The notes beneath the pieces are model-generated. The model had not been told where the DNA came from, did no database searches, and was given only the letters and a program-made list of their open reading frames with translations. Both the position numbers and the translations under genes were made by a program. From Bacillota bacterium (GTDB lineage: Bacteria; Bacillota; Limnochordia; DUMW01), in NCBI GenBank assembly GCA_012839765.1, contig DUMW01000031.1:11829-75828 (forward strand): DNA of 64,000 bases. The letters are read 5' to 3'. Shown piece after piece: positions 1-61,183 of this stretch (position 1 is its first letter; the number at the start of each line of letters is the position of its first letter).

Positions 1-88
1 CACCAGGTTCATGGTTGAGACAACGTATTCGGGGTCTACCGCGGTTTTCGCTTCCCAACTTCACTGTTTACCCCCAAAGGACTTCAAA

Positions 89-117
89 TTGTAATCACTT
101 AACCCCTATGATATAAT
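89..117 (+). promoter_or_regulatory. sigmaA-type promoter of ftsH
   Basis: TTGTAA(89-94)-17 bp-TATAAT(112-117) with extended -10 TG at 109-110. Confidence 0.75.
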
Positions 118-190
118 AGCTGGGAATAAGGAGAAATGTGTTCCTCCTTCACCCATTGTGCCGGTGTTATCACCGAAGGGAGGGTATTTT

Positions 191-2134
191 TTGAATAGGT
201 TTCTAAGAGGTTTGAGCGTATACCTCTTAATTGCGATTGTAGCCGTCTTCATGGTGAATATGTTCTACAGCGATCCTACCACCGTGCGCGAGGTAGGGTA
301 TAGCGAGTTTCTGGACTATGCGGCTGCGGGACAAATCGAATCGGCCCGGGTAATTGGCAGTCAACGGGTCGAAGGAAAGCTGTGGGATGGTTCCGTGATT
401 TTTGCGGAGATTCCCTATGGTACTCAGAATCTGGCGGACAGACTCTATGAATTGGGAATCAGTGTCAGTGCTGAACCGGAAAAGGACCGGGCGTGGTGGT
501 GGTCCTTGTTGCCCACGGTCTTCACCATCGTAGTGGTCGTGGTGCTTTGGATTTTCTTGATTAACCAGATGCAAGGTAGCGGCAACAAGGCCATGTCCTT
601 TGGGAAAAGTCGGGCGAGAATGTATTCGGAAGAAAAAAGCCGCGTTACCTTTGATGATGTGGCTGGCTTGGATGAGGCCAAGCAGGAATTGATGGAGATA
701 GTTGAGTTTTTGAAGCACCCGAAGAAGTTTGTGGAGCTGGGGGCGAAGATCCCCAAGGGTGTGCTGTTGGTTGGTCCCCCTGGCACGGGGAAAACCTTGT
801 TGGCTCGGGCGGTGGCCCGAGAAGCGGGGGTACCCTTCTTCAGTATTAGTGGTTCAGATTTCGTAGAGATGTTCGTTGGTGTGGGCGCCGCCCGGGTGCG
901 GGATCTTTTTGATAACGCCAAGAAAAACAGTCCCTGTATCGTGTTCATCGACGAATTGGATGCGGTGGGCCGGCAGCGGGGAACGGGGCTTGGTGGGGGC
1001 CATGATGAGCGGGAGCAGACCCTCAACCAGCTGTTGGTGGAGATGGACGGTTTTGAGTCCAACACAGGGATTATTGTGATGGCCGCAACTAACCGTCCAG
1101 ATGTGTTGGATCCTGCCTTGTTGCGCCCAGGACGTTTCGACCGCCGCGTGGTGGCGGATGTTCCCGATGTGCGCGGTCGGGAAGAGATCTTGAAGATTCA
1201 TGCCCGGGGTAAGCCCATGGGCAAAGATGTCGATCTGCGGGTTCTGGCTAAGCGGACGCCCTATTTCTCCGGCGCGGATCTGGCTAATCTGATGAACGAA
1301 GCTGCCATTTTGGCCGCCCGTAAGGGTCAGCGGGTCGTTACCATGGCCGAATGTGAAGAGGCCATTGACCGTGTGCTGATGGGGCCGGAACATCGCAAAC
1401 GGGTTCTCAGTGACAAGGACAAGCTGGTTTTTGCTTATCACGAGGCTGGTCATGCATTACTGGCCCATTACTTGCCCCATGCAGACCCTGTCTACAAAGT
1501 AACCATTATAGGACGGGGACGAACCGGTGGGCATACGGCTACTTTGCCGGTGGAGGAACGCTACGTCACCACCAAGTCGGAACTGCTAGATGAATTGGCG
1601 GTTCTTTTGGGGGGCCGGGCTGCGGAGGAATTGGCCTTCGACGGTGAGGTCAGTACCGGAGCCCAGAATGACCTGGAACGGGTTACGAAGTTGGCACGTA
1701 AGATGGTTACTGAGTGGGGTATGAGTGAGACCCTAGGCCCGTTGACCTTCGGACGTCGGGATGAGACCCAGGTGTTCCTAGGCCGAGACCTTGGTCGGGA
1801 TCGGGACTACAGTGAGAGTGTGGCAGCGCAAATCGACCGGGAAGTCAGAACCTTTGTGGAAGGAGCCCATAAGCAGGCTACTGAGGTTTTGGCGCAGCAC
1901 CGGGAAGAACTAGATAAAGTGGTGGAGGCCCTGCTAGAGCGGGAGACCCTCAACCGGCACGAGTTCGAATTGGCCTTGAAGTATGGTGCCAATATACCGG
2001 AGGAGGAACTGCAAAAGCGCTCTGCGGAAGAAAAGGAAAGCGCGCCCGAAGTGACGACCAAGGCCACCGGGGATTCTAAGGACGACACGCCTGTCCTGCA
2101 AAGAAAGCACTCCCCGGCGGTGGAGGCAGAATAG
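191..2134 (+). CDS. ftsH: ATP-dependent zinc metalloprotease FtsH
   Basis: Two N-terminal TM segments, Walker A GPPGTGKT, Walker B IFIDELD, SRH region, HEAGH zinc motif. TTG start at 191 chosen after GGGAGGG RBS (ORF track starts at 158). Confidence 0.97.
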
Positions 2135-9281: not shown

Positions 9282-9299
9282 ACTCCTCCCATGGGATGA

Positions 9300-9330
9300 T
9301 ACAGGCCGGGAAGACGCCTCCCGGCCTGTA
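9300..9330. terminator. hairpin between convergent genes
   Basis: TACAGGCCGGGA-agacgcc-TCCCGGCCTGTA. Confidence 0.65.
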
Positions 9331-9491
9331 CATTCATAGCCACACCCTCCAGCCCTAAACCTTTTCCTAAAGCCTCAGGTTCTTTCCCACCGTCTTCGGC
9401 TCTGTTGATAATGGATGACTCCCCTTTCATCAAAAGACGCTTCCTAAGATATCTTGGGAACCCCTTACGGGGAAACGGGTGTTCTTTGGCA

Positions 9492-10667
9492 TTAGGCCAG
9501 GGGTTCGGTGGTATAAAAATGGCCGTTTTTGTGGATTACCCCGTAGATCCGATACGCGATTTCCGCACAAAGGACCTTGCCCCCTTCGATGAAGAGACGA
9601 GGTATATGGGGAGGGATGGAGGTGAACCGCTGATAGATGGCCACTGGTTCCTGGATTTGCGCGGATACCCCAGGGGGAATCCGGATGGTGGCCATGCCCA
9701 TGGACGTCCGGCCCAGGAAGTGTGTGGGTTGTCCCTGGATGCGCACTAGTTGTCTTTCTTTGTGCAGGAGCTTCCGGCCCAGGGCCCCGAGGGAACTTTG
9801 AATATCCCCCGGCGGATCCAGCAAGAGTCCATCTCCATAGCCCAAAGGGATGGTGCCGATCTGCAGTGGGGCTGGCGCCCGGTAGGTGCTACCGTAGCCG
9901 AGGGTTTCGCCTTTGGCCAGCTCCTTCACTAAGACAAGATAGGTCTTTAGACACCAGGCCGTCTCCGTGGGTAAAGGGGCACACTGGCCGTAGAGGGCGT
10001 TGCCGAGGCGGCAAAGGTCTAACCTGCTTTCCGGCACTAGCACCGCGGCGGCACTGTTGGCCGCGTGGACCCAGGTGAAGGTGAAGCCATGTTTGTCTAA
10101 TTCCTCTACCGTCTTCAAGAAGCGGTCCAGCTGCCTTTTGGTTTGGGGGATGTTATGACTGGTGGGGAAGTGGGTGTAAATCCCTTCCCAAAGCAGACGC
10201 CTTTTCCTATCCAGGGCGCTCACCTGGCGGAGGAAAGCCAAGGCCTCCTCGGGTTTAATGCCACTTCGCCCCATGCCGATATCGATCTTTAGATGCACCC
10301 GGATCTTCCTTTTGTACTTCTCCCCTGCCCGAACTAGGGCCTCGGCCATGGGCAGGGTGCACAAAGTTTGGGTAAGGTCATACAAGGCCACCTGCTCCCC
10401 TTGGAAAGGGAAGCCGGGATGGAAGATGAGAATGGGACCGCGGATGCCACGACGCCGCAAGGTCCGGGCCTCTTCCAGGCTGTTTACTGCCAGGCCCCGG
10501 GCACCTAGGCGGAGAAAGAGCCGACTGGTTTGCACTAACCCGTGGCCATAGGCGTTGTTTTTCACCACGGCAAAGAAATCCGTTGGTATAGCCCTTCTTA
10601 CCTTGCTGAGGTTTTCTTTGAGTTTACCCGTATCGATTTCCACCCAAACCGGGGGTAAAGGATCCAT
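9492..10667 (-). CDS. alr: alanine racemase-family PLP enzyme (atypical)
   Basis: AVVKNNAYGHG (PLP Lys), KIDIGMGRSG, YTHF, HAANSA, GYG catalytic Tyr, IPLGYGDG; C-terminal motifs divergent. Confidence 0.85.
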   Translation of the reverse strand: MDPLPPVWVEIDTGKLKENLSKVRRAIPTDFFAVVKNNAYGHGLVQTSRLFLRLGARGLAVNSLEEARTLRRRGIRGPILIFHPGFPFQGEQVALYDLTQTLCTLPMAEALVRAGEKYKRKIRVHLKIDIGMGRSGIKPEEALAFLRQVSALDRKRRLLWEGIYTHFPTSHNIPQTKRQLDRFLKTVEELDKHGFTFTWVHAANSAAAVLVPESRLDLCRLGNALYGQCAPLPTETAWCLKTYLVLVKELAKGETLGYGSTYRAPAPLQIGTIPLGYGDGLLLDPPGDIQSSLGALGRKLLHKERQLVRIQGQPTHFLGRTSMGMATIRIPPGVSAQIQEPVAIYQRFTSIPPHIPRLFIEGGKVLCAEIAYRIYGVIHKNGHFYTTEPLA

Positions 10668-11746
10668 TAGCCACGACTCCCTAGAAGTTTCAGTTTTTCT
10701 TGGAGGGGGCCTTTAAGGAGGATCATTTGCCTTAGCAAGGGTTCACCTTTGTTATATAAACTCCAAAGAAGTTTGTTGTAGGGCAGATCCAGCTCCCCGA
10801 TGTATTCCACCAAGGTGGGGTTAAACCCCTCCTTGAACCGATACAGCCCATACAAGGGATGGTTGGGATCTAAATTGCCGCTTACCCCGCGAAAATCATA
10901 AACCTGGCACCCCCGTTGCTTGGCGTAGCGGATCATGGCCCACTGGATGGCGTAGTTGGGCTGCAGGTTCCTAAGCTCGTTGCTCGAGGCGCCGTATAGA
11001 TACCAGGCTTGGCTGCCAAAGACAAACAAGAGTGTGGCGGACAGTAATTGCCCTTGGTAGTAGGCCAAGAATAGCCGGGCCATGTTCCGGGGGACAAACA
11101 GATCCCACATCCGGGAAAAGTAACCGTAGTTGCGCACGGCAAATCCGTCCCGCTGGCAGGTTTCCAGAAGTAACGAATAGAATTTGGACAGATCCCTTTT
11201 GTCCGCGGAGCAGCGGACTTGGACTCCCTTCCGCTGGGCATAGCGGATGTTGTAACGGGTTTTGGACTTCATCTCCGCCAAAAGCTGTTCTTCGCTCTTG
11301 TCGATATTCAAGCGGAAGACGAATTTGGGCTGGACGTTCTCGAAGGCCTTGCCCTTGTTCACCGAGCGAAAACCGGCCTTGAGCAGATGTTTGTGGAACT
11401 GGAGGTTTTCCTTGGGGATGGGCGGATCGATCTTGAGGAAGATGGCCCGGTGTTCTTTGGCAATGGGGCGGATTTCCCCGAGCAGTGGTTCCAGATGCTT
11501 TGGATCCGCCAGGACGGGTCCGTGGGGTGCGTAGAAAAAACTCCGGCCCAAGGGGATCCCTCGTTTGAGAATGGAGACGGCCCCAAGGATCTCGTCCTTG
11601 TCCTCCAAGATTAAGCGCAGAGGTTCCCATCCGGTATAGGCCTTCAATTCACCCCACTCGTAGGATTGTAGAAAACTACCCTGTTGCCTTGCCAGAAAGC
11701 CATTAAACAGATCCCGCTCATTGTTATGTATTAGCCGCAGGTGCAT
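10667..11746 (-). CDS. FemX/FemAB/MurM-family aminoacyl-tRNA-dependent peptidoglycan bridge ligase
   Basis: FLQSYEWGELK, FYAPHGPV, IFLKIDP, KSKTRYNIRYAQRKGV, WYLYGAS, YDFRG, LYRFKEGF; stop overlaps the alr start (TAATG). Confidence 0.9.
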   Translation of the reverse strand: MHLRLIHNNERDLFNGFLARQQGSFLQSYEWGELKAYTGWEPLRLILEDKDEILGAVSILKRGIPLGRSFFYAPHGPVLADPKHLEPLLGEIRPIAKEHRAIFLKIDPPIPKENLQFHKHLLKAGFRSVNKGKAFENVQPKFVFRLNIDKSEEQLLAEMKSKTRYNIRYAQRKGVQVRCSADKRDLSKFYSLLLETCQRDGFAVRNYGYFSRMWDLFVPRNMARLFLAYYQGQLLSATLLFVFGSQAWYLYGASSNELRNLQPNYAIQWAMIRYAKQRGCQVYDFRGVSGNLDPNHPLYGLYRFKEGFNPTLVEYIGELDLPYNKLLWSLYNKGEPLLRQMILLKGPLQEKLKLLGSRG

Positions 11747-11860: not shown

Positions 11861-13018
11861 GTGGCAAAAGAGGGACGTGCGGTTGTTTGGTGGGTGAGTT
11901 TGCTTTCGGTCTTGTCATTGCTTTCCGGTGTGACCTGCGCCGAGGAACTCCGCCTTGCCGCAGAGGCGGTGGCCTTGGTGGATGGGCAGACCGGCGTACT
12001 ACTTTACGGTAAAAACGCCTTTACCCGGCGGTCCATTGCCAGCCTCACCAAAGTGATGACCATCTTTCTGACCGCAGAAAACATCCAAGCGGGGAAGATC
12101 AAAATGGATGACGTGGTGGTGGCGGACGCCAAGGCCCAGTCCCTGGAGGGGACGGAACTGAAGGTGAAGCAGGGCCAGTCCTTCACTGTGGAAGAGCTTC
12201 TTTATGCTGCCGCCCTGATTTCCGCCAACGACGCTGCATATATGCTGGCGGTGCACCAAGCGGGTTCCGAGGCTGCCTTTGCCCAGCAGATGACGCAGCG
12301 AGCCAGGGAACTGGGCCTGGAGGATACCAACTTCACCGATGCCACGGGTCTTAACCCCAGCTGGGAAGGAAACTACTCCACCGCCTATGACTTGGCCCAA
12401 CTCTTTCGGGTGGCCATCCAAAATCCCATCTTCGCCCGGGTGGTGGGCACCGCCCGGTACCGAATCAATTCTCTGGGTCTGGAGATTACCAACTCCAATC
12501 CCCTCCTCGGGGAGTATCCGGGGAATGAGGGGGGGAAGACCGGTTTCACCACCCCCGCGGGGCACAGCCTCGTTACCTCGGCCACCATTGAGGGCTGGAG
12601 GCTGGTGGCGGTAGTCCTGGGAGGACCAAACCGGGAGGCCCGGCAGCAAGATACCAAAGAGCTTCTGAATTATGGGTTTGAAAACCTCCAGTTGGTGATC
12701 CGCAAAGGAGAAGTGGTGGGGACCGGTCCCCTTTCTGGTGGAGCCCGCAGCAAAGTGCAGCTGGTGGCCGGATCCGACTTCAAGGCCCATGTCCCACCAG
12801 GCTATGACGGACCACCCTTGGAAAGAAGGTTGGAGCTGGATTCCCCACCACCGGAGGCCCCCGTGGACCCGGGCCAGCCCTTCGGCCGCCTTGTCTTTTA
12901 CCGGGGGGAGGAAGAAGTGGGTTCCATCCCTGCGGTGGCTAAGCACGGGGTAGGGACGGCAAACGTGGTGACTAGAGTAATCAGTTGGTTTTTGGGCCTT
13001 TTCGGCCGCAGACCCTAG
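11861..13018 (+). CDS. D-alanyl-D-alanine carboxypeptidase (peptidase S11, DacF/DacA-like)
   Basis: SxxK (ASLTK), SxN (SAN), KTG (GKTGFT), C-terminal PBP5 domain, signal peptide. Confidence 0.92.
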   Translation: MAKEGRAVVWWVSLLSVLSLLSGVTCAEELRLAAEAVALVDGQTGVLLYGKNAFTRRSIASLTKVMTIFLTAENIQAGKIKMDDVVVADAKAQSLEGTELKVKQGQSFTVEELLYAAALISANDAAYMLAVHQAGSEAAFAQQMTQRARELGLEDTNFTDATGLNPSWEGNYSTAYDLAQLFRVAIQNPIFARVVGTARYRINSLGLEITNSNPLLGEYPGNEGGKTGFTTPAGHSLVTSATIEGWRLVAVVLGGPNREARQQDTKELLNYGFENLQLVIRKGEVVGTGPLSGGARSKVQLVAGSDFKAHVPPGYDGPPLERRLELDSPPPEAPVDPGQPFGRLVFYRGEEEVGSIPAVAKHGVGTANVVTRVISWFLGLFGRRP

Positions 13019-13033
13019 CGGGGAGGATTAGCC

Positions 13034-14986
13034 TTGTATTACGATGCCCTGTTGGTCAGCAGAAAACGAATTCTGTGGCTCTTTTGTGCTGTGGCTGTGT
13101 TCTTCGTGGTGGTGGTGCTGCGCCTGTTTTATGTGCAGGTTTTGCAGTACCAGTTCCTCCAGGGACAGGGACTGAAACAACGATTACGACCCATTCCTGT
13201 GGATGCAAAGCGGGGGACCATCTATGACCGTAACGGCTATGTATTGGCCACCACGATTAGTGCCTCGTCGGTCTACGCTATCCCAGTGGAGATCACAGAA
13301 CCGGAGAAGACTGCTCAGCTGTTGGCGGAAGTGCTGGACTTGGACTATGACTTTGTCTTGAAGCGGGTCACGGCCAACAGTGCCGCCGAGTGGATCAAAA
13401 AGCGGGTCACCGATGCGGAGGTGACCCTGGTGCGGAGTTTAGATCTGCCGGGCATTGGCATCGTGGAAAATCCCGTGCGGTATTACCCCGATGGGACCAT
13501 TGCCCCCCAGGTATTGGGGATCGTGGGCATCGATAACCAGGGCCTGGAGGGAATCGAGTTCCAGTACGACGCGATCTTGCGGGGGCGTCCGGGGGCTGTG
13601 TTGGTGGAACGGGATTCCATGGGCCGGGAGATTCCGCACGGTGTCCACACCTATGTTAAACCGGTGGACGGCTATGATATTTACCTGACCATCGATCGGA
13701 ACATCCAACTGATGGCCCAAAGGGAGATTGCCCGGGTTACCCAGGAAACCGGCTCGAAGCAGGGGTTGATCCTCGTGATGGATCCTGGAACCGGGGAGAT
13801 CCTGGCTACGGCCATTTATCCCTCTTTTGACGCGGCCAACTATGCGGACTATCCGGACAAATACCGGCGGAATGTGGCCATCACCGACAATTACGAGCCC
13901 GGTTCCACCTTCAAGGCGGTTACCGCCGCGGCGGCCTTAGACGCAGGGATCACCACCCTCCAAACCCGCTATTTCGACCCCGGTTTTATCCGCGTTTCCG
14001 GGTGGACGATCAAATGTTGGCACAGCGCCGGACACGGCTCCCAAAACTTCATTGAGACCCTGGAAAACTCCTGTAACCCCGTGTATGCCCGCCTGGGCAT
14101 GGAATTGGCGGAACTGAAGGAAGGACGCGGTTTTTATGAATACATCCGTGACTTTGGTTTCGGTGAGCCCTTGGGCGTAGACTTTCCCGGTGAGGCGGTG
14201 GGGATTTTGTATCCCCCCAGTCCCGATGTGCCCGCGGTCACCTGGGCCAACATCGGTTTTGGGCAGAGTATCAGCGTGACCCCCCTGCAGCTGTTGAATG
14301 CCATGAATGCCATCGCCAATGGCGGTAACCTGATGCGACCCTACTATGTAATGAGGATCGTGGATAAGGACGGGAATGTCATCGAGGAGAGGGAACCGGA
14401 GGTCATTCGTCAGCCGGTCTCGCGGGAGGCCGCGGAGCAAGCGGCCCTGATGCTCCGTTCCACTGTGGCCAATGGCACCGCCAGCGGTGCCGACATCCCT
14501 GGCTACCGGGTGGGGGGCAAGACGGGTACAGCCCAGGTGGCCGAAGGGGGAGTGTACAGCCGCTCCAAGGTGATTGCCTCCTTCTTTGGGATCGCACCGA
14601 TGGATGATCCCCAATTTGCGGCCCTTATTGTCCTTTGGGAGCCTACCGGTGCTTACTACGGCGGTGTGATTGCGGCACCGGCCTTTGGAATCTTCGCCCT
14701 GCCGATGCTGCGGTACTTGAACGTGGAACAGCGGCTGGAGGATAACGGTGAGGAAAGAACGGTGCAAGTGCCAAAGGTTGTCGGGCTACCATTGGCGGAG
14801 GCGGAACGATTGATCACCCAACAGGGACTGACCTACGGAATCATGGGGATCGGACCCGTGGTTACCTATCAGACTCCCTTACCCAACGTCTATGTGGCCC
14901 AAGGGGCTAAGGTCATCCTCTACACAGATCCCACCGAGCTGTTGGAAACGGGTCTGGTGGTACGGGATGGGCCTACACTCCATTGA
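13034..14986 (+). CDS. class B penicillin-binding transpeptidase (SpoVD/FtsI-like) with PASTA domain
   Basis: N-terminal TM, RGTIYDRNG, EPGSTFK, SCN, KTGTAQ, C-terminal VPKVVGLPLAEA PASTA; GGGAGG RBS before TTG. Confidence 0.92.
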   Translation: MYYDALLVSRKRILWLFCAVAVFFVVVVLRLFYVQVLQYQFLQGQGLKQRLRPIPVDAKRGTIYDRNGYVLATTISASSVYAIPVEITEPEKTAQLLAEVLDLDYDFVLKRVTANSAAEWIKKRVTDAEVTLVRSLDLPGIGIVENPVRYYPDGTIAPQVLGIVGIDNQGLEGIEFQYDAILRGRPGAVLVERDSMGREIPHGVHTYVKPVDGYDIYLTIDRNIQLMAQREIARVTQETGSKQGLILVMDPGTGEILATAIYPSFDAANYADYPDKYRRNVAITDNYEPGSTFKAVTAAAALDAGITTLQTRYFDPGFIRVSGWTIKCWHSAGHGSQNFIETLENSCNPVYARLGMELAELKEGRGFYEYIRDFGFGEPLGVDFPGEAVGILYPPSPDVPAVTWANIGFGQSISVTPLQLLNAMNAIANGGNLMRPYYVMRIVDKDGNVIEEREPEVIRQPVSREAAEQAALMLRSTVANGTASGADIPGYRVGGKTGTAQVAEGGVYSRSKVIASFFGIAPMDDPQFAALIVLWEPTGAYYGGVIAAPAFGIFALPMLRYLNVEQRLEDNGEERTVQVPKVVGLPLAEAERLITQQGLTYGIMGIGPVVTYQTPLPNVYVAQGAKVILYTDPTELLETGLVVRDGPTLH

Positions 14987-17260: not shown

Positions 17261-17294
17261 GATGGGATGGTCGCGGACCGTCCCATCTTTCTTT
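17261..17294 (+). terminator. intrinsic terminator after SBP gene
   Basis: GATGGGATGGTC-gcg-GACCGTCCCATC followed by TTTCTTT. Confidence 0.65.
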
Positions 17295-17315
17295 ACGTCC
17301 GGTAGGAGGGATCCT

Positions 17316-18707
17316 ATGGCTAGAAGACATGTAAGGTGGTTGGTTCTATTCATGTTACTGTTTTCCAGTATTGCCTTAGCGCAAGAAACCAGTGAAGTTG
17401 TCCCCAGTATCTATTTGGATCAAAGCAGGGAGTTCCTCTTTCGGGTGTCCTGGGATTGGCCCCGGGGTCTGCGGAGCCAATACCGAGTGACGGTGGGCGA
17501 GCAGACCTTGTCTTTGGAGCTTTTGGCCGATTACGATATCCTCATCCTCCCCGCCTCCTCCGGGACGGTGGAATATTCACCAGAGGAGATCGAGGCCATC
17601 AAGGACTACTTGGAGGCGGGGGGTGGCGTGTTGCTCTGCAATCCTGGATACACCCCCAGTACCCCGGCCACTAAGCTGTTGATGAACTTGGGCCTTCTCA
17701 CCTTGCGGTTTAGCATTAACAAAGCCACCGGCGAACTGCGCACCCCCGCGGGGGAACCCCTAGGAGTAGAAGCCTGGGGCGGAAACACCATTAACATCCT
17801 GGCCAACCGTATGCCCGAAGGCTTTTCGGTGGGGGTCGTGGATGCCCAGGATCGTCCGGTCTTGCTCACCGGAACCCTTGGCCAGGGGCGGTTTGCTATG
17901 GTCAGTGATGATGCGGTGCTTTTCATCAACAACGGTCGGGAGCTTACTCCTGGGGGAGTGGAGCTTTTGCAGTGGCTGGGGGAAAACCGCATCGGGAAAA
18001 ACCAAGGTTACGTGGCCCAGCGTCTGTATCCGGAATTGACCCTGACCCATGGGGAGATCACAGTCCATTACTCCCAGGTGCTTAAGGACTATGTAGAGCT
18101 CATCATCGAACATGCCGACGAGATTTTCGAGTTTCTTGAGGACTACCATGGTCATGCCCTTTCACAGATGCGGGTGGTCCTTCTGGCCTGTGCCGGCAGT
18201 GGCTATGCTGCCGGAGGCGAAGTGGGAATCGGCGTCTTGGGAGAGCGGGCCAATGTGATCGAAGTAATGGGTCATGAATTGACCCATGAATGGGTGCGGC
18301 CGGCTATTCTACCCTCCACCATGAACGAAGCCTGGGCAATTATCATGGGGCTGCGGGTAACAAACCTGGTGGGGTTTGCGGAGCACTATGAGGAGGAAAT
18401 GGCCCGATTGAAGAACGCGTACGAGAACGCCAAGACGTTGGGGGTCAACATGGACCTGCGTCTGACGAAGGAAGAAACGGGGGATCATTGGTTCGGTTTC
18501 ATCGGCAAAGTGTTGCAGCTGGTGGAAACTGCGGAAGCCATGTACGGTGACCATTTCTCCCGGGATTTCTTCACTTTGGCCATCCAACGGATCCAAGAGG
18601 GTAAAGCCCACAGTCCCTTGACTATTCGGGATATTGCCAATGTGGCCGGAGAGGTCCTGAATATGGATCCGGAAGTGATTTACGAGAGGTTGCAGGGCGG
18701 GCATTAG
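17316..18707 (+). CDS. secreted protein: class I GATase-like domain plus gluzincin-type metallopeptidase domain
   Basis: Signal peptide; YDILILP...IKDYLEAGGGVLL; GHELTHEW followed by NEAWA; start ATG 17316 after AGGAGGG. Confidence 0.65.
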   Translation: MARRHVRWLVLFMLLFSSIALAQETSEVVPSIYLDQSREFLFRVSWDWPRGLRSQYRVTVGEQTLSLELLADYDILILPASSGTVEYSPEEIEAIKDYLEAGGGVLLCNPGYTPSTPATKLLMNLGLLTLRFSINKATGELRTPAGEPLGVEAWGGNTINILANRMPEGFSVGVVDAQDRPVLLTGTLGQGRFAMVSDDAVLFINNGRELTPGGVELLQWLGENRIGKNQGYVAQRLYPELTLTHGEITVHYSQVLKDYVELIIEHADEIFEFLEDYHGHALSQMRVVLLACAGSGYAAGGEVGIGVLGERANVIEVMGHELTHEWVRPAILPSTMNEAWAIIMGLRVTNLVGFAEHYEEEMARLKNAYENAKTLGVNMDLRLTKEETGDHWFGFIGKVLQLVETAEAMYGDHFSRDFFTLAIQRIQEGKAHSPLTIRDIANVAGEVLNMDPEVIYERLQGGH

Positions 18708-18732
18708 GCCCTGCGAAACGGGGGTTTGAGTT

Positions 18733-20817
18733 GTGCGCACCATTGTTAGTGTTTTGCTGATCTTCTTGATTGCTTTTACTGCCCTACCGGTAGCCGCGGC
18801 TAGCATCCGCCGTCCGACAGTCTACATCGATCAGAGCAGAGAGTTTCTATTCCGCTTGTCCTGGGATCTAGCCCGGATGCTGCGGGAGCGGTATGTGGTC
18901 ACCGTGGGCGAGTGCACTCTGACGCCAGAGGTTTTGGCTCCCTATGATGTCCTGATTCTCCCCGTCTCCCGCCAGGTGGGGTATACGGCCCAGGAGTTAG
19001 TGGCCATTGAGGACTTTCTAAAGCGGGGGGGCGGCGTACTGGTGTTGGACTTTTCCCGTTCCGTCAGTGAACCGGCCCACCAGATCTTGGCCCATTTGCA
19101 GGTACCCCTGCGGGGTGGCAGTACGGCCGCAGTGGGGGAACTGACCAGTGGGGCCCAAGGACCCTTGGGGGTTACTGCCACGGGCAAGACCATCAATATC
19201 TTGGGGTCTGGCTTTGAGGTGACCGTCACCGACCGGAATCAGCGGCCGGTGCTGGTGGAAGGTGGCTTTGGGGCCGGGCGGTTAGCGGTGGCTGGAGACG
19301 AAGGGATCCTGCTTACCAATGACTACTCTAAGCTTACCGCCGGGGCCTTGGAACTGGTGGAGCGGTTAGCGGGAAATCTGTCGGGAGAGCCCCGGGATGT
19401 TATCCCGGACAGGTTGTACCCGGAGCATACCCTCCAGCACGGCACCATCACCCTCTATTACTCCCAGGTCCTCGCGCAGTACGTGGAATTCTTGGTGGAA
19501 CATGCCGATGAGGCCTTTGATTTTATCGGCAAACTCCACGGTCATGAGCTGCCCGCGGGATTACGGGTGGTACTGTTGGCCTGCGCTGGTAGTGGTTATT
19601 CTGCCCATGGCGAAGTGGGGATCGGGGTTTTAGGGGAAGCAGCTAATGTGATCGACGTCTTCGGCCATGAATTGACCCATGAGTGGGTCTGGCCTGCGAA
19701 GATGCCGTCTTCCATCGAAGAGGGTTGGGCCTCCCTGGCCGGGGCCCGGCTATGCGCGTATCTGGGTTTCGACGATTACGCCCAAAGGCAGCAGGCGAGC
19801 TATGCCAATGCCTTCGAGCGGACCAAGGCGGAGTTGGGACACCTTGATCTGCTCACCGGCCACCAGACCGAAGGGGTGCATTGGGCCGGGCACATGGGCA
19901 AGACCATGTACCTGGTGAAAAGGGCAGAAGAACTCTATGGACCCACCTTCACCCCGGACTTCTTCACCCTGGCTATTGAGCGGATCCAGCGGGGTGAGGC
20001 TAGCAGTCCGCTGACCATCGAAGATATTGCCCGGATCGCTGGTACTCTGCTTCAGATGGATCCGGAACTGGTCTACGATCACCTACGGGGTGCTGCCTAC
20101 ATTGAGGTAAGCTCTCCTAAGGCCGGTGCCTATGTGCGGGGGGATTTGCCCTTGGAAGTTCGGATTCCCCAGGGAAAGGACCACCGGGTCCGGGTGACCC
20201 TCAACGATCAAGAGCTTTACGTGGGACCCTGGGAGCCTTTGGTGATTGATACCACGGTCTTCCCCGATGGGGAGTACCGGCTTACCCTGGAGCTTTTTGC
20301 CCAGGATACCCTGGTGAACCGCCAGACGCTGACCATCTATCTGGACAACTGGCAGCGGGTGGAGGATCATCTCCGGCCGCCGTTGGAGTCCCCCTGGTTT
20401 GGGACGGTAAAGCAATCCCGCTACCTGGATTGTACCCCCGGCTGGCGCCATGATACCGATCGGGCCCAGGATTTCTTCGGTGATGCCCACCGCTTGACCT
20501 GTGTGGGAGAAGCCCTGGAATCGGTAATCTATGCCGCGGTGGAGGTGCGGGAGTTTGCCGTTACCGTATATGCCAAGGGCGACAGCCTGCAGGGCATCCT
20601 CGCGGTGGAGGTCTCCCCGGATCAAGTAGAATGGAGCCCCCTACCCTATGAGGAGGAAGTTGTAGAGGTGGCCGGGGACTGGCGCAAGGTGATCATCAGC
20701 GGTAGGGAGCTTCCCAGTGCCGGTACCAGCTTCTTACGGATCACCGTGGATGGCAGCCAGGTGCCGCCAGAAAATGTGGTCCTGGGGTATGTGGAGTATA
20801 TCGCAAAGGTGGAATAG
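18733..20817 (+). CDS. paralog of preceding gene with extra Ig-like and C-terminal beta-rich domains
   Basis: Shares DQSREFLFR, RVVLLACAGSGY, GEVGIGVLGE, GHELTHEWV and SPLTI with 17316-18707; IEVSSPKAGAYVRG Ig-like segment. Confidence 0.65.
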   Translation: MRTIVSVLLIFLIAFTALPVAAASIRRPTVYIDQSREFLFRLSWDLARMLRERYVVTVGECTLTPEVLAPYDVLILPVSRQVGYTAQELVAIEDFLKRGGGVLVLDFSRSVSEPAHQILAHLQVPLRGGSTAAVGELTSGAQGPLGVTATGKTINILGSGFEVTVTDRNQRPVLVEGGFGAGRLAVAGDEGILLTNDYSKLTAGALELVERLAGNLSGEPRDVIPDRLYPEHTLQHGTITLYYSQVLAQYVEFLVEHADEAFDFIGKLHGHELPAGLRVVLLACAGSGYSAHGEVGIGVLGEAANVIDVFGHELTHEWVWPAKMPSSIEEGWASLAGARLCAYLGFDDYAQRQQASYANAFERTKAELGHLDLLTGHQTEGVHWAGHMGKTMYLVKRAEELYGPTFTPDFFTLAIERIQRGEASSPLTIEDIARIAGTLLQMDPELVYDHLRGAAYIEVSSPKAGAYVRGDLPLEVRIPQGKDHRVRVTLNDQELYVGPWEPLVIDTTVFPDGEYRLTLELFAQDTLVNRQTLTIYLDNWQRVEDHLRPPLESPWFGTVKQSRYLDCTPGWRHDTDRAQDFFGDAHRLTCVGEALESVIYAAVEVREFAVTVYAKGDSLQGILAVEVSPDQVEWSPLPYEEEVVEVAGDWRKVIISGRELPSAGTSFLRITVDGSQVPPENVVLGYVEYIAKVE

Positions 20818-20963: not shown

Positions 20964-22583
20964 ATGGAGATTGTAATTGGACTTGCCGGTGGGTTGGCCC
21001 TGTTTCTCTTTGGTATCGAGCAGATGTCCGAAGGCCTGCAACAAGCAGCCGGTCGTCGGTTGAGTAATGTACTTAGTTTCTTGACGAAAAACACCTTTGT
21101 CGGCGTGTTGTCAGGTCTTATCCTTACCATGTTGATCCAAAGCAGCAGTGCTACTACGGTGATGCTGGTGGGCTTTGTGAAGGCGGGATTGATGACTTTA
21201 CAACAGACCATCGGTCCTATCCTTGGGGCTAACATCGGTACCACCATTACGGTCCAGATGGTCTCCCTTAAACTGACAGATCTGGCTTTGCCCGCTGTGG
21301 CCCTTGGTTTTGTGTTGTACTTTGGTGGCAAGTCTAGACGGTGGAAACTAATCGGGGAGAGCATCCTTGGGTTTGGTCTTCTTTTCCATGGGATGGAGCT
21401 GATGTCCACCAGTCTTGAGCCCCTACGGAATAGTGCTGTATTTGCCGACATCATCGCTCAGTTTGCCCAGCATCCCATGCTGGGGGTCTTGATAGGGATT
21501 ATCGGTACTGCCATCGTGCAAAGTAGTAGTGCTTTTACCGCAGTGGTGCTGGCTTTGGCCATGCAGGACTTGGTTACCCTGGAGTCCGGTGTTGCGTTGG
21601 TGTTGGGAAGCAATATTGGCACCTGTGTCACCACGTTGTTGGCTTCCATTGGAGGCGGCGTGACTGCTTTGCGGGTGGCGGTGGCCCACCTTTTATTTAA
21701 TACCGTGGGCGTTGTTCTTTTCCTCCTTATCTTCAACCCCTTTACTTCTCTGGTCAGCCTGACCTCTCCAGTGGTGGCGCGGCAGCTGGCCAACGCGCAT
21801 ACCCTCTTTAACGTGGCCAATACCTTGTTGTTCCTGCCCTTTGTTGGGGTTTTTGTGAAGTTTTTGGAGCGCATCATTCCCGGCGAAGACGAGATCGTGG
21901 AACGGCGTGTCAAATACCTGGATGTCAGTGCCCTGAAGTATCCCCGGGTTTCCTTGGAACTGGCTGCTAAGGAGATCAACCGGATGGCGACTTATACCGA
22001 GGCGATGCTGTCCGGGGCCCGAAAAGCCTTTCTAGAGGGGAACCGCGACTCCATCTACAAGGTGCAGCAGAGTGAGGATCTGGTGGACATGCTCCAAGAG
22101 GAGATTCTGGAGTACATGTCTAGTTTGTTGACGAGCAATATAAACCTTTCCGATGTGGAGTCGGAGCGGGCTACCGGTTTAATGATGGTAGTCAATGACA
22201 TTGAACGAATTGCAGACCATGCCAACAATATTGCGGAATTTGCCCAGGTGATGATGGATGATGAATTGAAGTTCTCCGAAGAGGCCACCGCTCAACTTAC
22301 GAAGATGTTTGACCTAGTGCAGGAGATGGTACGGCTTAGTGTGCAGGTCTTGGCCAATCAGGACAAGGAAGCCGCGCAGAAAATCTGGGATATTGAACGA
22401 CTGGTGGACGAGATGGAGGAAGAGATGCGCCAGGGCCATATGAAACGGATGTACGAAGGAGTCTGCATCCCCCGGGCGGGGATTGTCTATGTGGAGATGG
22501 TGACGAACCTGGAGCGGATTGGCGACCACACTACAAACATTGCGGATATGGTCCTCACGGACCAATTGCCCGCTTCCAAGTAG
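20964..22583 (+). CDS. Na+/Pi cotransporter family protein with PhoU-like repeats
   Basis: QSSSAT and QSSSAF repeats, GANIGTT/GSNIGTC, C-terminal ERIADH and ERIGDH PhoU motifs. Confidence 0.92.
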   Translation: MEIVIGLAGGLALFLFGIEQMSEGLQQAAGRRLSNVLSFLTKNTFVGVLSGLILTMLIQSSSATTVMLVGFVKAGLMTLQQTIGPILGANIGTTITVQMVSLKLTDLALPAVALGFVLYFGGKSRRWKLIGESILGFGLLFHGMELMSTSLEPLRNSAVFADIIAQFAQHPMLGVLIGIIGTAIVQSSSAFTAVVLALAMQDLVTLESGVALVLGSNIGTCVTTLLASIGGGVTALRVAVAHLLFNTVGVVLFLLIFNPFTSLVSLTSPVVARQLANAHTLFNVANTLLFLPFVGVFVKFLERIIPGEDEIVERRVKYLDVSALKYPRVSLELAAKEINRMATYTEAMLSGARKAFLEGNRDSIYKVQQSEDLVDMLQEEILEYMSSLLTSNINLSDVESERATGLMMVVNDIERIADHANNIAEFAQVMMDDELKFSEEATAQLTKMFDLVQEMVRLSVQVLANQDKEAAQKIWDIERLVDEMEEEMRQGHMKRMYEGVCIPRAGIVYVEMVTNLERIGDHTTNIADMVLTDQLPASK

Positions 22584-22591
22584 CCAATCAC

Positions 22592-22615
22592 GCCCCCGTT
22601 TGGGGGCTTTTTTTT
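22592..22615 (+). terminator. intrinsic terminator of Na/Pi transporter
   Basis: GCCCCC-gttt-GGGGGC followed by T8. Confidence 0.8.
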
Positions 22616-22617
22616 AT

Positions 22618-22689
22618 TGGAGCGGGCGAGAGGACTTGCACCTCTACCTTCCGGTGGGACCGGACGTCATACTCTTTGACCACGCCCGC
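22618..22689 (-). tRNA. atypical tRNA-Gly(CCC)-like gene, 72 nt, with encoded CCA
   Basis: GCGGGCG-TG-GTCA-AAGAGTA-TGAC-G-TCCGG-TCCCA-CCGGA-AGGT-AGAGG-TGCAAGT-CCTCT-CGCCCGC-T-CCA: four paired stems, G1-C72/C2-G71/G3-C70/U73 and CCC; non-canonical T-loop, D-loop and anticodon arm. Confidence 0.85.
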
Positions 22690-22876: not shown

Positions 22877-22886
22877 AAGGGCGAAA

Positions 22887-22903
22887 GGTCAAGAAAGGTC
22901 AAA
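22887..22903 (+). promoter_or_regulatory. CtsR operator
   Basis: GGTCAAG-AAA-GGTCAAA versus consensus RGTCAAA-NAN-RGTCAAA. Confidence 0.85.
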
Positions 22904-22956
22904 GATGTGGAAAGGGCCTCGTAAAGCAGGTTAGACGATGACGAGTCTCCCGGGTC

Positions 22957-22973
22957 TTTGACCTTGCTTGACA
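22957..22973 (-). promoter_or_regulatory. second CtsR operator, inverted orientation
   Basis: Minus strand TGTCAAG-CAA-GGTCAAA. Confidence 0.65.
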
Positions 22974-23019: not shown

Positions 23020-23484
23020 ATGACCTTAGCCGATCTGATTGAGCAGTATATCAAAAAACTGCTGGTCAGCACGGCCACCGATATGGTAATCATTCGGCGC
23101 CAAGAGCTTGCGCAGATGTTTGACTGCGTACCCTCCCAGATAAATTACGTGCTGCAAACCCGTTTTACCCCGGAAAAGGGGTACATCGTGGAAAGTAGGC
23201 GGGGCGGTGGCGGATATATCCGCATCGTCCGCATGGAAGCTCCTAGCCGGGGCGAGGTGATCAGGAACCTGATCTTGAACATCCGCCCCCCCATGGAGCA
23301 GCGGGAAGTGGAGGAGGTCTTGGAACAGCTGGTTGACTTGGATGTGTTGGAGGAACGGACGGCAGCGTGGTTAAGAACCTTGATCAGGCACGAGTGTAAT
23401 GAGTACAACCCCGAAATCGCAGACTATGTGAGGGCGTCATTGCTTAAGGTGACCTTGCTGATGAAGTTAGGAGAGAACTCCTAG
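23020..23484 (+). CDS. ctsR: class III heat-shock repressor CtsR
   Basis: LADLIEQYIK, FDCVPSQINYVLQTRF, VESRRGGGGYIRI. Confidence 0.97.
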   Translation: MTLADLIEQYIKKLLVSTATDMVIIRRQELAQMFDCVPSQINYVLQTRFTPEKGYIVESRRGGGGYIRIVRMEAPSRGEVIRNLILNIRPPMEQREVEEVLEQLVDLDVLEERTAAWLRTLIRHECNEYNPEIADYVRASLLKVTLLMKLGENS

Positions 23485-59702: not shown

Positions 59703-59794
59703 AGATGCCAGATGAGCGGTTTAGCGGTTGTTTTGAGGGTTATTGACTGCTTTCCAGCAGTGTGATAGGATAGGAAAGGACAAGTGAATAAAGG

Positions 59795-59900
59795 CTCATC
59801 GAGAGTGGTGGAGGGACTGGCCCAATGAAACCCGGCAACCGGTGGAATAATCCCACAAGGTGCTAAATCCTGCAGAATGGTAACCGTTCTGAGAGATGAG
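59795..59900 (+). ncRNA. SAM-I (S-box) riboswitch aptamer
   Basis: CTCATCGAGAG-TGGTGGAGGGACTGGCCCAATGAAACC-CGGCAACC...GGTGCTAAATCCTGCAG...CTGAGAGATGAG upstream of metK. Confidence 0.95.
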
Positions 59901-59920
59901 ATTACTATAGCAAAACTAGT

Positions 59921-59954: not shown

Positions 59955-59968
59955 GTATGGAGGTCAAA

Positions 59969-61183
59969 ATGTTGACAGGCAAAAGGGATTTCTTGTTTAC
60001 TTCTGAATCGGTGACCGAAGGTCATCCGGACAAAATGTGTGATCAGATTTCCGATGCCATCCTGGATGCCATCATCGCCCAGGACCCCGAGGCGCGGGTG
60101 GCCTGCGAGGTGGCCGTTACAACAGGGATGGTCCTGGTGATGGGAGAGATCAGCACCGTGGCCCAGGTGGACATCCCCAAACTGGTCCGAAACACCATTC
60201 GGGAGATCGGCTATGATCGGGCTAAATACGGGTTTGATGCTGACACCTGCGCGGTGCTGGTCGCCCTCGATGAGCAGTCGCCAGATATTTCCATGGGTGT
60301 GCAGCGGGCCTTGGAAGTGCGCAACCAGGTGGACGGCAACTCCAGACTGGAATACCTGGGGGCAGGGGATCAGGGCCTGATGTTCGGGTACGCCTGCGAT
60401 GAAACCCCTGAACTGATGCCTTTGCCCATTGCCCTGGCCCATCGGTTAGCCCAGCGGCTGAGCCAGGTGAGAAAGTCCGGGGAGCTGGCCTATCTGCGTC
60501 CCGACGGGAAGGCGCAGGTGACGGTGCAGTATCGGGATGACCGACCGGTGCGGATTGATACGGTGGTGGTCTCCACCCAGCATAGCCCCGAGATTACCAG
60601 AGAACAGTTGGAGCGGGATCTTTTGCACCATGTGATTAACCCACTTCTACCAGCGGACTTGGTGGATGGGGAGACGAAGTATCATATTAACCCCACCGGC
60701 CGGTTCGTGATTGGTGGTCCCCAGGGTGACGCGGGCCTGACGGGAAGGAAGATTATCGTGGATACTTACGGGGGTATGGCCAGACATGGGGGCGGGGCCT
60801 TCTCGGGCAAGGATCCCACCAAGGTAGATCGGTGTGCCGCCTATGCCGCCCGGTATGTGGCCAAGAACATCGTGGCTGCGGGCTTGGCTAGCCGGTGTGA
60901 GATCCAGGTGGCCTATGCCATCGGGATGATGCATCCGGTTTCCCTCATGGTAGACACCTTTGGGACCGGGATCATCTCCGATGGGGAGATTACGGCGTTG
61001 GTCCGCAAGAACTTTGACCTGCGGCCCGGGGCGATCATTCGGGACTTGGATTTAAGAAGGCCCATCTACCGTCAGGTGGCGGCCTATGGTCATTTCGGCC
61101 GGCCGGATTTGGACTTGCCCTGGGAGAGGATCGACAAAGCTGAGCTGCTGCGGCAACAGGTTTCCAGTACTGTCCGGAACTGA
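59969..61183 (+). CDS. metK: S-adenosylmethionine synthetase
   Basis: [48 protein letters not shown]; ATG 59969 after GGAGGT. Confidence 0.98.

Follow-up and report, generated by a model that had tools for sequence, protein, structure and literature searches.

Analysis of a 64,000-nt stretch of contig DUMW01000031.1 from a Bacillota bacterium of the Limnochordia (the window, by which the whole of this stretch is meant) revealed a 72-nt tRNA-like RNA gene at 22618–22689 of the minus strand that is very probably functional, maintained by selection and non-decoding. There is good reason to regard the RNA as a glycine acceptor, and the chances that it serves as the dedicated non-decoding glycine donor for a FemX-type transferase encoded nearby appear about even. 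Literature searches returned no report of such RNAs outside staphylococci, and a non-decoding glycine acceptor outside Staphylococcus appears to be new.

Identification and fold of the RNA

All of the features that an earlier reading of this DNA, made from the letters alone (the sequence-only reading), had ascribed to the gene were found at 22618–22689, i.e., a minus-strand cloverleaf of 72 nt with an encoded CCA, the glycine identity set, unusual D- and T-loops and a short anticodon arm. ARAGORN called the gene as tRNA-Gly(ccc) at exactly these coordinates and on this strand, and it was the sole tRNA called in the 64-kb window. When the Rfam tRNA model (RF00005) was applied with permissive filters to a region of 700 nt, the RNA scored 47.9 bits against a gathering score of 29 (E = 4e-9), and four loop positions were aligned in the anticodon loop compared with six in the model. 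The same RNA was missed by an Rfam run over the whole window at gathering thresholds, which was a filter effect, as the speed filters of Infernal hide this atypical tRNA. The minimum-free-energy structure was the cloverleaf (z = -2.8 relative to shuffles), and thermodynamic folding closed the anticodon arm further, to 6 bp and a 3-nt loop. For a degenerate pattern of the RNA features, the number of occurrences expected from shuffled window sequence was 0.00. The expectation that tRNA-finding programs would return a low score or a pseudogene call failed for the window copy, given the Gly(ccc) call; the anomaly became visible in ARAGORN only with orthologues, i.e., the copies at the loci designated below as L050 (no call) and L179 (called as Trp).

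From its 5' end, the RNA consists of the 5' strand of the acceptor stem (GCGGGCG, 22683–22689), UG, the D arm (GUCA-AAGAGUA-UGAC, 22666–22680), a single G, the anticodon arm (UCCGG-UCCCA-CCGGA, 22650–22664), AGGU, the T arm (AGAGG-UGCAAGU-CCUCU, 22629–22645), the 3' strand of the acceptor stem (CGCCCGC, 22622–22628), the discriminator U (22621) and CCA (22618–22620). The D-loop is without GG, G55 replaces the universal U or pseudouridine of the T-loop, the anticodon arm has 15 nt rather than the usual 17, and the T-stem pairs include A49-U65, G50-C64 and A51-U63. The determinants of glycyl-tRNA synthetase (GlyRS) are an acceptor set (G1-C72, C2-G71, G3-C70 and U73) and C35/C36. This bacterial glycine identity set of the acceptor end was present in the window RNA and invariant in the five distinct family sequences that were compared, and the CC of the anticodon loop would correspond to C35/C36.

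Conservation in other assemblies and lineages

CtsR, which is encoded 330 nt from the RNA, was present on 23 public contigs. Each of the eight contigs that were fetched, from different biogas and anaerobic-digester assemblies, carried the gene at an identical length of 72 nt, and the sole difference among seven aligned strain copies was G or A at one position of the variable loop. An assembly error behind the 2-nt shortfall of the anticodon arm, named in the sequence-only reading as a possible refutation, was ruled out by the same RNA length in eight independent assemblies. One strain variant (L003, 1–2600) departed from all others approximately 25 nt past the CCA, within the terminator hairpin (compare window 22560–22610), and had a gene for a 973-aa T5orf172/MUG113/ResIII protein where the others had a Na/Pi transporter gene; at this junction an island or mobile element probably borders the tRNA-like gene.

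Orthologues were sought by walking out from CtsR homologues, the identities of which fell from 81% to less than 50% (Limnochordia, Thermaerobacter and unnamed Bacillota); the loci compared are labeled by L-numbers. The RNA was found in three further Limnochordia-like lineages, i.e., four with the window, and ctsR adjoined it in all four. The copy in L044, L045 and L097 (CtsR 81% identical) had 70 nt, a D-loop of AAGUA and the same anticodon and T arms as the window copy. The orthologue in a Limnochordia metagenome-assembled genome (MAG; L050/L051, CtsR 47% identical) was composed of GCGGGUG, UG, GCCU-AAGUA-AGGU, G, CCCGG-ACCAA-CCGGG, AGAU, GGAGG-UGCAAAU-CCUCC, CGCCCGC, U and CCA, and scored 45.4 bits with the Rfam tRNA model while receiving no ARAGORN call. 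The RNA of L179/L180, with the anticodon arm UCCGG-CCCAA-CUGGA and the T arm GGGGG-UGCGACU-CCCCC, was called as tRNA-Trp(cca). With a family covariance model built from the window type, the variable-loop variant L002, L044 and L050, members scored 88–98 bits (97.2 for the window copy) and every ordinary tRNA in approximately 550 kb of fetched DNA scored 56 bits or less.

Covariation was tested with five distinct sequences, 21 pairs and 500 shuffles, a small sample that makes the result supportive rather than conclusive. All 105 pair cells were occupied by standard pairs as opposed to approximately 50% when the partners were slid, and double-sided changes occurred in five pairs of the D, anticodon and T stems; the observed values were reached by none of the 500 shuffles. 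Six of the seven acceptor pairs were invariant, the other showing one C-G to U-G change, while compensatory changes were seen in two of the four D-stem pairs. Pairing of the anticodon stem held in every sequence; a U-A pair was replaced by C-G in one compensatory change, the loop-closing G-C was invariant, and in the T stem the 49-65 and 51-63 pairs switched from A-U to G-C among orthologues. G55 was kept in every T-loop (UGCAAGU, UGCAAAU and UGCGACU). The family therefore keeps the acceptor stem with its glycine set, the discriminator U, the encoded CCA, U8-G9, the short D-loop without GG, G55, a 15-nt anticodon arm in four lineages, the closing G-C, and a loop with CC at positions 2-3 and a final A, and does not keep the residue at the U33 site, the nominal anticodon, A49-U65 or A51-U63. 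Of the deviations for which conservation in relatives was to be sought, the short arm, the GG-less D-loop and G55 were conserved and the two A-U pairs of the T-stem were not (L050, L179).

The RNAs of the window and L044 were identical at 66 of 70 positions (94%) as compared with 52% identity of the flanking intergenic DNA on the 5' side and 35% on the 3' side. These alignments indicate that the RNA gene is under purifying selection and that its apparent defects, which are common to all lineages, are not random. Such selection, together with shared and non-random defects, excludes a decaying pseudogene. A relic without function of its own, whether a decaying tRNA pseudogene or what is left of an integrase attachment site, would find some support in the L003 island junction approximately 25 nt past the 3' end, since tRNA genes are common integration sites, and is nevertheless most improbable given the retention of the cloverleaf with compensatory changes across lineages in which CtsR is only 47% identical, the contrast in identity between the RNA and its flanks, the recurrence of the same defects in every lineage, and the retention of CCA and a terminator. 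The finding that the sequence-only reading would have taken as the sign of a pseudo-tRNA, a canonical copy with random decay in relatives, did not materialize, as the deviations were the same in every lineage and accompanied by compensatory changes.

Anticodon arm and decoding

An arm of 15 nt (5 bp and a 5-nt loop) was present in all four lineages, with the loops UCCCA, ACCAA and CCCAA. The residue before the triplet was U, A or C, so that U33 was not kept, and orthologues with one glycine-type acceptor stem were variously designated by ARAGORN as Gly(ccc), not called, or designated as Trp(cca). Of the features expected of an elongator, the family thus has a cloverleaf above the RF00005 gathering threshold (47.9 bits) and is without a 17-nt arm with a 5-bp stem, 7-nt loop and U33, without a conserved anticodon that matches the acceptor identity, and without the elbow contacts between G18-G19 and U54-U55-C56 (D-loops AAGAGUA or AAGUA). 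The claim of a decoding-incompetent anticodon arm was in this way upheld: with an arm held at 15 nt and a triplet and U33 site that drift among orthologues, the RNA is very unlikely to be a decoder. The name tRNA-Gly(CCC) used in the sequence-only reading is a misnomer, as the triplet differs among orthologues. Judged from these sequences, the truncated arm and drifting triplet, rather than the T- and D-loops, would be the decisive diagnostic features of the window RNA, and the pattern fits an RNA that still needs recognition by GlyRS but no contact with a codon.

If the arm is instead parsed as a 4-bp stem with a 7-nt loop (GUCCCAC), the RNA would be a working elongator tRNA-Gly(CCC) that reads GGG. 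Consistent with this proposal, both ARAGORN and Rfam accept the RNA, and the copies in the window and L044 would then possess U33, CCC and A37. In the other orthologues, the same parse puts A or C at position 33 and combines the triplet CCA with a glycine acceptor, which would place glycine at Trp codons; a glycine acceptor with a Trp anticodon and no U33 is not a credible decoder. Moreover, the loop-closing G-C is invariant, the fold favors the closed stem, and the normal geometry of the ribosome calls for an arm one base pair longer than this. Thus, a decoding role has only a slim chance of being correct.

Comparison with known tRNAs

The window RNA and canonical elongator tRNA-Gly (RF00005) share a cloverleaf in which the acceptor, D and T stems have 7, 4 and 5 bp, as well as U73 and an encoded CCA; the window RNA differs in its 15-nt anticodon arm, the lack of a fixed U33 or anticodon, the lack of G18-G19, and G55. 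A chromosomal tRNA-like RNA of Bacillus cereus, tRNA-Other, resembles the window RNA in that it can be aminoacylated and is not a normal elongator, and differs from it in a Lys/Trp-related identity, another architecture, a proposed regulatory role and no link to Fem enzymes.

The closest known parallel in features is found in the staphylococcal non-proteinogenic (NP) tRNAGly, which are without G18-G19 and U55, have TGC or TGT for TTC in the T-loop, carry the weak EF-Tu T-stem pairs A49-U65, U50-A64 and A51-U63, and have an anticodon loop shut to 5 nt by an extra Watson-Crick pair; they are hypomodified, scarce and favored by FmhB via determinants in the D and T arms, and the lineage has been described as restricted to staphylococci (PMC7826273; PMC13443448). 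Likeness to these species, which had been proposed from the sequence, was confirmed for the absence of G18-G19 and of U55, and it extends to the closed 5-nt loop (PMC7826273; PMC13443448). The window RNA and the NP1, NP2 and NP3 tRNAGly(UCC) of S. aureus and S. epidermidis have in common a glycine-type acceptor stem, no G18-G19, no U55 (TGC), a Watson-Crick pair that shuts the anticodon loop to 5 nt and a Fem-family transferase in the same genome, and the window copy also has A49-U65 and A51-U63. In contrast with the 17-nt staphylococcal arm (6 bp and 5 nt), that of the window family has 15 nt (5 bp and 5 nt) and is a more extreme version; the triplet is CCC or CCA and drifting as opposed to UCC, U33 and the weak T-stem pairs are not kept, a single copy lies by ctsR in a Limnochordia-like anaerobe, and the FemX of the window has no counterpart of the coiled coil through which FmhB is proposed to read the D and T arms. 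On the basis of host lineage, with the NP features compared by description, the origin of the window family is likely independent of the staphylococcal NP clade.

Other tRNA-Gly genes with G55 were noted in database scans. A scan of a genome collection with a CCC/G55/glycine-acceptor pattern gave 35 matches and no homologue; the pattern had picked up ordinary-length G55 tRNA-Gly(CCC) genes, tRNAs in arrays and chance matches, and the species of the window was not recovered there. Only two exact family members (L097 and L151) were present among 113 loci from a metagenome scan with a relaxed family pattern, and none among four matches in viral contigs, where L172 repeats L089. Many of the metagenome matches were 74-nt tRNA-Gly(UCC/GCC) genes (e.g., L058, L091 and L126) with U8-G9, a D-loop without GG, G55 and a T-loop of the form UGCAAxU, and these had the standard arm of 5 bp and 7 nt with U33 and did not exceed 56 bits when scored with the family model. 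Such normal-length genes are probably ordinary translational tRNAs, and in one or more uncultured lineages tRNA-Gly seems to have this alternative elbow design as its standard form. The D-loop and T-loop deviations, which the sequence-only reading had treated as diagnostic, lose that standing, as G55 with a GG-less D-loop also occurs in many normal-length tRNA-Gly(UCC/GCC) genes of housekeeping clusters. L058, L059, L083, L091, L126 and many of L057–L169 have the D-loop AGCAGCA, the T-loop UGCAAAU and a conserved tRNA-Pro-Gly/Arg-His cluster. Arrays of 16–38 tRNA genes with several short or odd members were seen in Planctomycetota and other MAGs (L009, L011, L013, L015, L037 and L039), including a 69-nt tRNA-Gly(ccc) and a 68-nt tRNA-Trp in L011, and the tRNA-Gly(CCC) copies of these arrays also have G55.

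When the flanks of all G55 tRNA-Gly loci were searched by tblastn and with a FemX profile, a Fem-like neighbor was found only at L121, so that adjacency to FemX is not general for these genes. In L121 (69% GC; 67–2129 (+)), a sugar-transferase (Bac_transf) gene is followed by a G55 tRNA-Gly(UCC) with its loop closed by C32-G38 and, approximately 50 nt after the CCA, by a GNAT gene of the FemAB superfamily, an open reading frame (ORF) of at least 334 aa that matched Acetyltransf_6 (47.8 bits) and TIGR03019 (E = 9e-7) and scored 17.6 bits, below the cutoff, against PF02388. A cassette with 77% protein identity between two contigs of Candidatus Portnoybacteria, a member of the candidate phyla radiation (CPR), consists of a NodU-like carbamoyltransferase gene, a G55 tRNA-Gly(UCC) with the D-loop AAAGUA and a loop closed by G32-C38, and, 5–8 nt downstream, a gene for a 351-aa protein (L084, 8241–11121 (-); L062, 1–2853 (-)). 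The L084 protein is predicted to be a tandem GNAT (mean pLDDT 91.5), its assignment from sequence alone being weak, with its best fold matches to DUF2156 (2hqy, E = 4.5e-14), the catalytic domains of MprF/aminoacyl-phosphatidylglycerol synthase (aaPGS), Weissella viridescens FemX and the Gly-tRNA-dependent Sba18/Sbb17. A third type, a 73-nt variant (L089, L134 and L172) with the D-loop (AAGAGUA) and T-loop (UGCAAGU) of the window RNA and a 6-nt anticodon loop, was reported by ARAGORN as 'tRNA-??? (cc)'; in L089 (10632–10786 (-)) a gap of 5 nt separates it from tRNA-Arg(tct), a tmRNA gene and a DUF932 gene are close by, and L172 is a viral-class contig from IMG/VR.

In general terms, these loci lend support to an association between tRNA-dependent transferases and tRNA-Gly variants in which the anticodon loop is closed or shortened. 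It is conceivable, and is put forward tentatively, that non-decoding glycine donor RNAs are recurrent in bacteria, as a general module of private tRNA plus transferase rather than a staphylococcal peculiarity. The Limnochordia-like tRNA might then be an acceptor/T-arm carrier with a 15-nt stub that offers two cytosines to GlyRS, and the closed-loop G55 tRNA-Gly variants of at least two distant lineages (high-GC L121 and the CPR Portnoybacteria) might stand as further instances, encoded directly upstream of different tandem-GNAT transferases.

FemX and the alr-femX-dac-pbp block

The FemX-like protein anticipated from the sequence is indeed encoded in the window, at 10667–11746 (-), and is the candidate user of the RNA. 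This FemX-type aminoacyl-tRNA-dependent transferase of 359 aa scored 215.1 bits with PF02388 (FemAB; cutoff 24) and 70.8 bits with PF13480, and its best solved relative was S. aureus FmhB, a lipid II:glycine glycyltransferase (PDB 6snr, E = 7e-47). Alignments with 6snr and 1lrz fell in two stretches that skipped approximately residues 232–312 of those chains, the coiled-coil region, so that the protein is without the coiled-coil insert, and it was colinear with the 335-aa FemX of W. viridescens, an alanine enzyme (E = 3e-29). It was 49–50% identical to the FemAB protein of L050; the closest homologues (72% identity) carried source names such as 'Limnochordia bacterium', and homologues were named 'lipid II:glycine glycyltransferase' by their sources. 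Judged by its Fem and CtsR homologues, the organism belongs to a thinly sampled, Limnochordia-like part of the Bacillota.

The neighbors of femX, assigned with Pfam, form a cell-wall block. Alanine racemase (alr, 9492–10667 (-)) abuts femX on the same strand and is possibly co-transcribed with it, the same pairing being present in L050, L174 and L176; an S11 D-Ala-D-Ala carboxypeptidase (dac, 11861–13018 (+)) is divergent from femX, as in L050 and L174; and a class B penicillin-binding protein (PBP) with a PASTA domain (13034–14986 (+)) is the last gene of the block. In L050, which confirms the synteny of block and RNA, the order is alr-femX (-), dac-pbp (+), RNA (+) and ctsR (+), with the RNA approximately 125 nt past the PBP gene, whereas in the window the same block is parted from an inverted RNA by 7.5 kb of transport genes. 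L174/L175, with a FemX 72% identical to that of the window, has the block at a contig end, and L097, from the same sample, has the L044-type RNA beside ctsR. Conversely, the ctsR locus of five related lineages (L047, L052, L055, L178 and L181) is without both the RNA and the femX block; counted together with near-duplicates of these loci, the ctsR loci of six other lineages had no family RNA. Thus, by comparison of L050 and the window with these five lineages, RNA and block are present or absent together at the ctsR locus, which is suggestive of a link between them, the carriers being related to each other and not independent evidence. Two other observations concern these loci: a pair of 'Gate'-domain genes (PF07670) lies between alr and the next gene in L174 (5724–6853), with none at the syntenic window position (9282–9491), and the same pair flanks ctsR in lineages without the femX block.

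A tRNA-derived RNA that is no longer an adaptor and has been retained as a glycine carrier would account for this combination of features. Once transcribed and matured, the RNA would be charged by GlyRS through its acceptor set and probably the two conserved loop C residues equivalent to C35/C36. With a 5-bp stem, a closed 5-nt loop and no fixed U33 or triplet, it would present no anticodon, and the charged RNA would stay out of translation, apart from EF-Tu and the ribosome. The resulting private pool of Gly-RNA would be used by the FemX-type transferase of the alr-femX-dac-pbp block for the addition of glycine to the peptidoglycan stem peptide. FmhB's coiled-coil domain is proposed to read the D and T arms, whereas the FemX of W. 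viridescens, which is without a coiled coil, recognizes the acceptor arm only (PMC7826273); according to a further report, the aminoacylated acceptor arm is all that the latter enzyme needs (PMC2655667). A FemX without the coiled-coil domain, as in the window, may likewise need the acceptor arm only. In keeping with this, conservation in the window family is confined to the acceptor/T half and the GlyRS contacts; the W. viridescens substrates differ in being synthetic and alanine-bearing as opposed to a natural gene for a full non-decoding cloverleaf with glycine identity.

The significance of such a donor, if it is one, lies in the fact that staphylococcal NP tRNAGly are the only proven case of tRNAs reserved for cell-wall synthesis. 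Cells would then have repeatedly resolved the competition between ribosome and cell wall for Gly-tRNA through a private carrier, and conservation within the family would reveal the minimum that GlyRS and a FemX without a coiled coil need from a tRNA. In annotation pipelines such genes would be given the wrong label, tRNA-Gly(CCC) or tRNA-Trp(CCA), or go unnoticed, and the tRNA sets and codon capacity deduced for these genomes would be skewed. The RNA would also be a natural, orthogonal and ribosome-excluded aminoacyl carrier.

Several observations weigh against a donor role in FemX-dependent synthesis or against parts of the case for it. In the window, femX is 11 kb from the RNA, with transporter genes between, and inheritance rather than function may account for the synteny seen in the window, L044 and L050. 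The FemX protein scored 149 bits against a cutoff of 500 with the NCBIfam FemX equivalog, which does not fix its amino-acid specificity. No family RNA was found within 10 kb of the distant FemX homologues of L176 and L177, which indicates that FemX enzymes work without such an RNA elsewhere. As regards the RNA itself, G55 and the absence of GG, being found in apparently ordinary tRNA-Gly genes, are not a mark of non-ribosomal use; the T-stem pairs that the sequence-only reading had taken as weak for EF-Tu are lineage-specific (G49-C65 in L050, a T-stem entirely of G-C pairs in L179); covariation rests on five distinct sequences; and a promoter scan gave no convincing sigma-70 promoter directly upstream of the RNA in the window, only a distal match.

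The principal competing explanation is that the RNA is a donor for a different tRNA-dependent enzyme elsewhere in the genome, such as a lipid or glycan aminoacylase of the aaPGS/DUF2156 type, a Fem-like ligase of natural-product synthesis or a cyclodipeptide synthase, and that proximity to femX reflects inherited gene order. The coupling of closed-loop tRNA-Gly variants to non-FemX tandem-GNAT enzymes in other phyla (L084/L062) is in its favor, as are the distance of femX in the window and the fact that the neighbor conserved most tightly is ctsR, not femX. On the other hand, femX was the only gene for a tRNA-dependent transferase among the window ORFs that were scanned, the femX-dac-pbp block of L050 is immediately followed by the RNA, and where lineages have no RNA at this locus, the block is missing as well. 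On balance, a different enzyme partner is considered rather unlikely.

Genomic setting and transcription signals

The RNA gene stands alone on the minus strand between a plus-strand Na/Pi-cotransporter/PhoU gene and the operon ctsR-mcsA-mcsB-clpC-radA-disA, the first gene of which was identified with Pfam at 23020–23484 (+). A GC-rich hairpin at 22592–22607, just beyond the 3' end of the RNA and with the convergent Na/Pi transporter gene on its other side, was recognized in a terminator scan as a canonical plus-strand terminator and is possibly bidirectional; in L179, the RNA has a strong terminator of its own directly after the CCA. Upstream of ctsR are GGTCAAA repeats that resemble CtsR operators (22884–22963, consensus matches only), and these are overlapped by a sigma-70-like consensus match aimed at the RNA (22892 to 22864, minus strand). 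An equivalent match in L044 (3012–3041 (-)) also overlaps CtsR operator repeats. In the window and L044, where the RNA is divergent from ctsR, this match, 175–190 nt upstream, is the only one of its kind on the RNA strand, and the arrangement hints at divergent transcription that may be controlled by CtsR. It was not seen in L050 and L179, in which the CtsR boxes are downstream of the RNA and its terminator.

These signals bear on the proposal that the RNA is a regulatory tRNA mimic, i.e., a decoy or sensor, in charged or uncharged form, for GlyRS, a glycine T-box, RelA or a tRNA-targeting toxin, or a link to the CtsR stress regulon. The position of the RNA next to ctsR in four lineages and the overlap of the sigma-70-like match with CtsR operator repeats in the window and L044 would suit such a role, although a position upstream of ctsR is common for tRNA genes of Firmicutes. 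Control by CtsR is not conserved, given the downstream boxes of L050 and L179, and T-box and ribosomal A-site sensing need an anticodon, which the RNA is missing. Thus, while non-translational tRNA-like regulators are known (reviewed in PMC4052509), the assignment of the window RNA to this class is improbable.

No clear sporulation gene was noted among the window ORFs scanned, and the sporulating lineage assumed in the sequence-only reading was therefore not borne out. The 7.5-kb segment that parts the PBP gene from the RNA in the window, and that is not present in L050, contains two large ORFs of 481 and 694 aa (17262–20817 (+)), located after a gene for a solute-binding protein, with only sub-threshold matches to GIFT/ABC_transp_aux. 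At a greater distance from the RNA, an S-adenosylmethionine (SAM) riboswitch of the S-box leader type was identified at 59793–59902 (+) with a score of 91.1 bits, directly upstream of an ORF at 59957–61183 (+).

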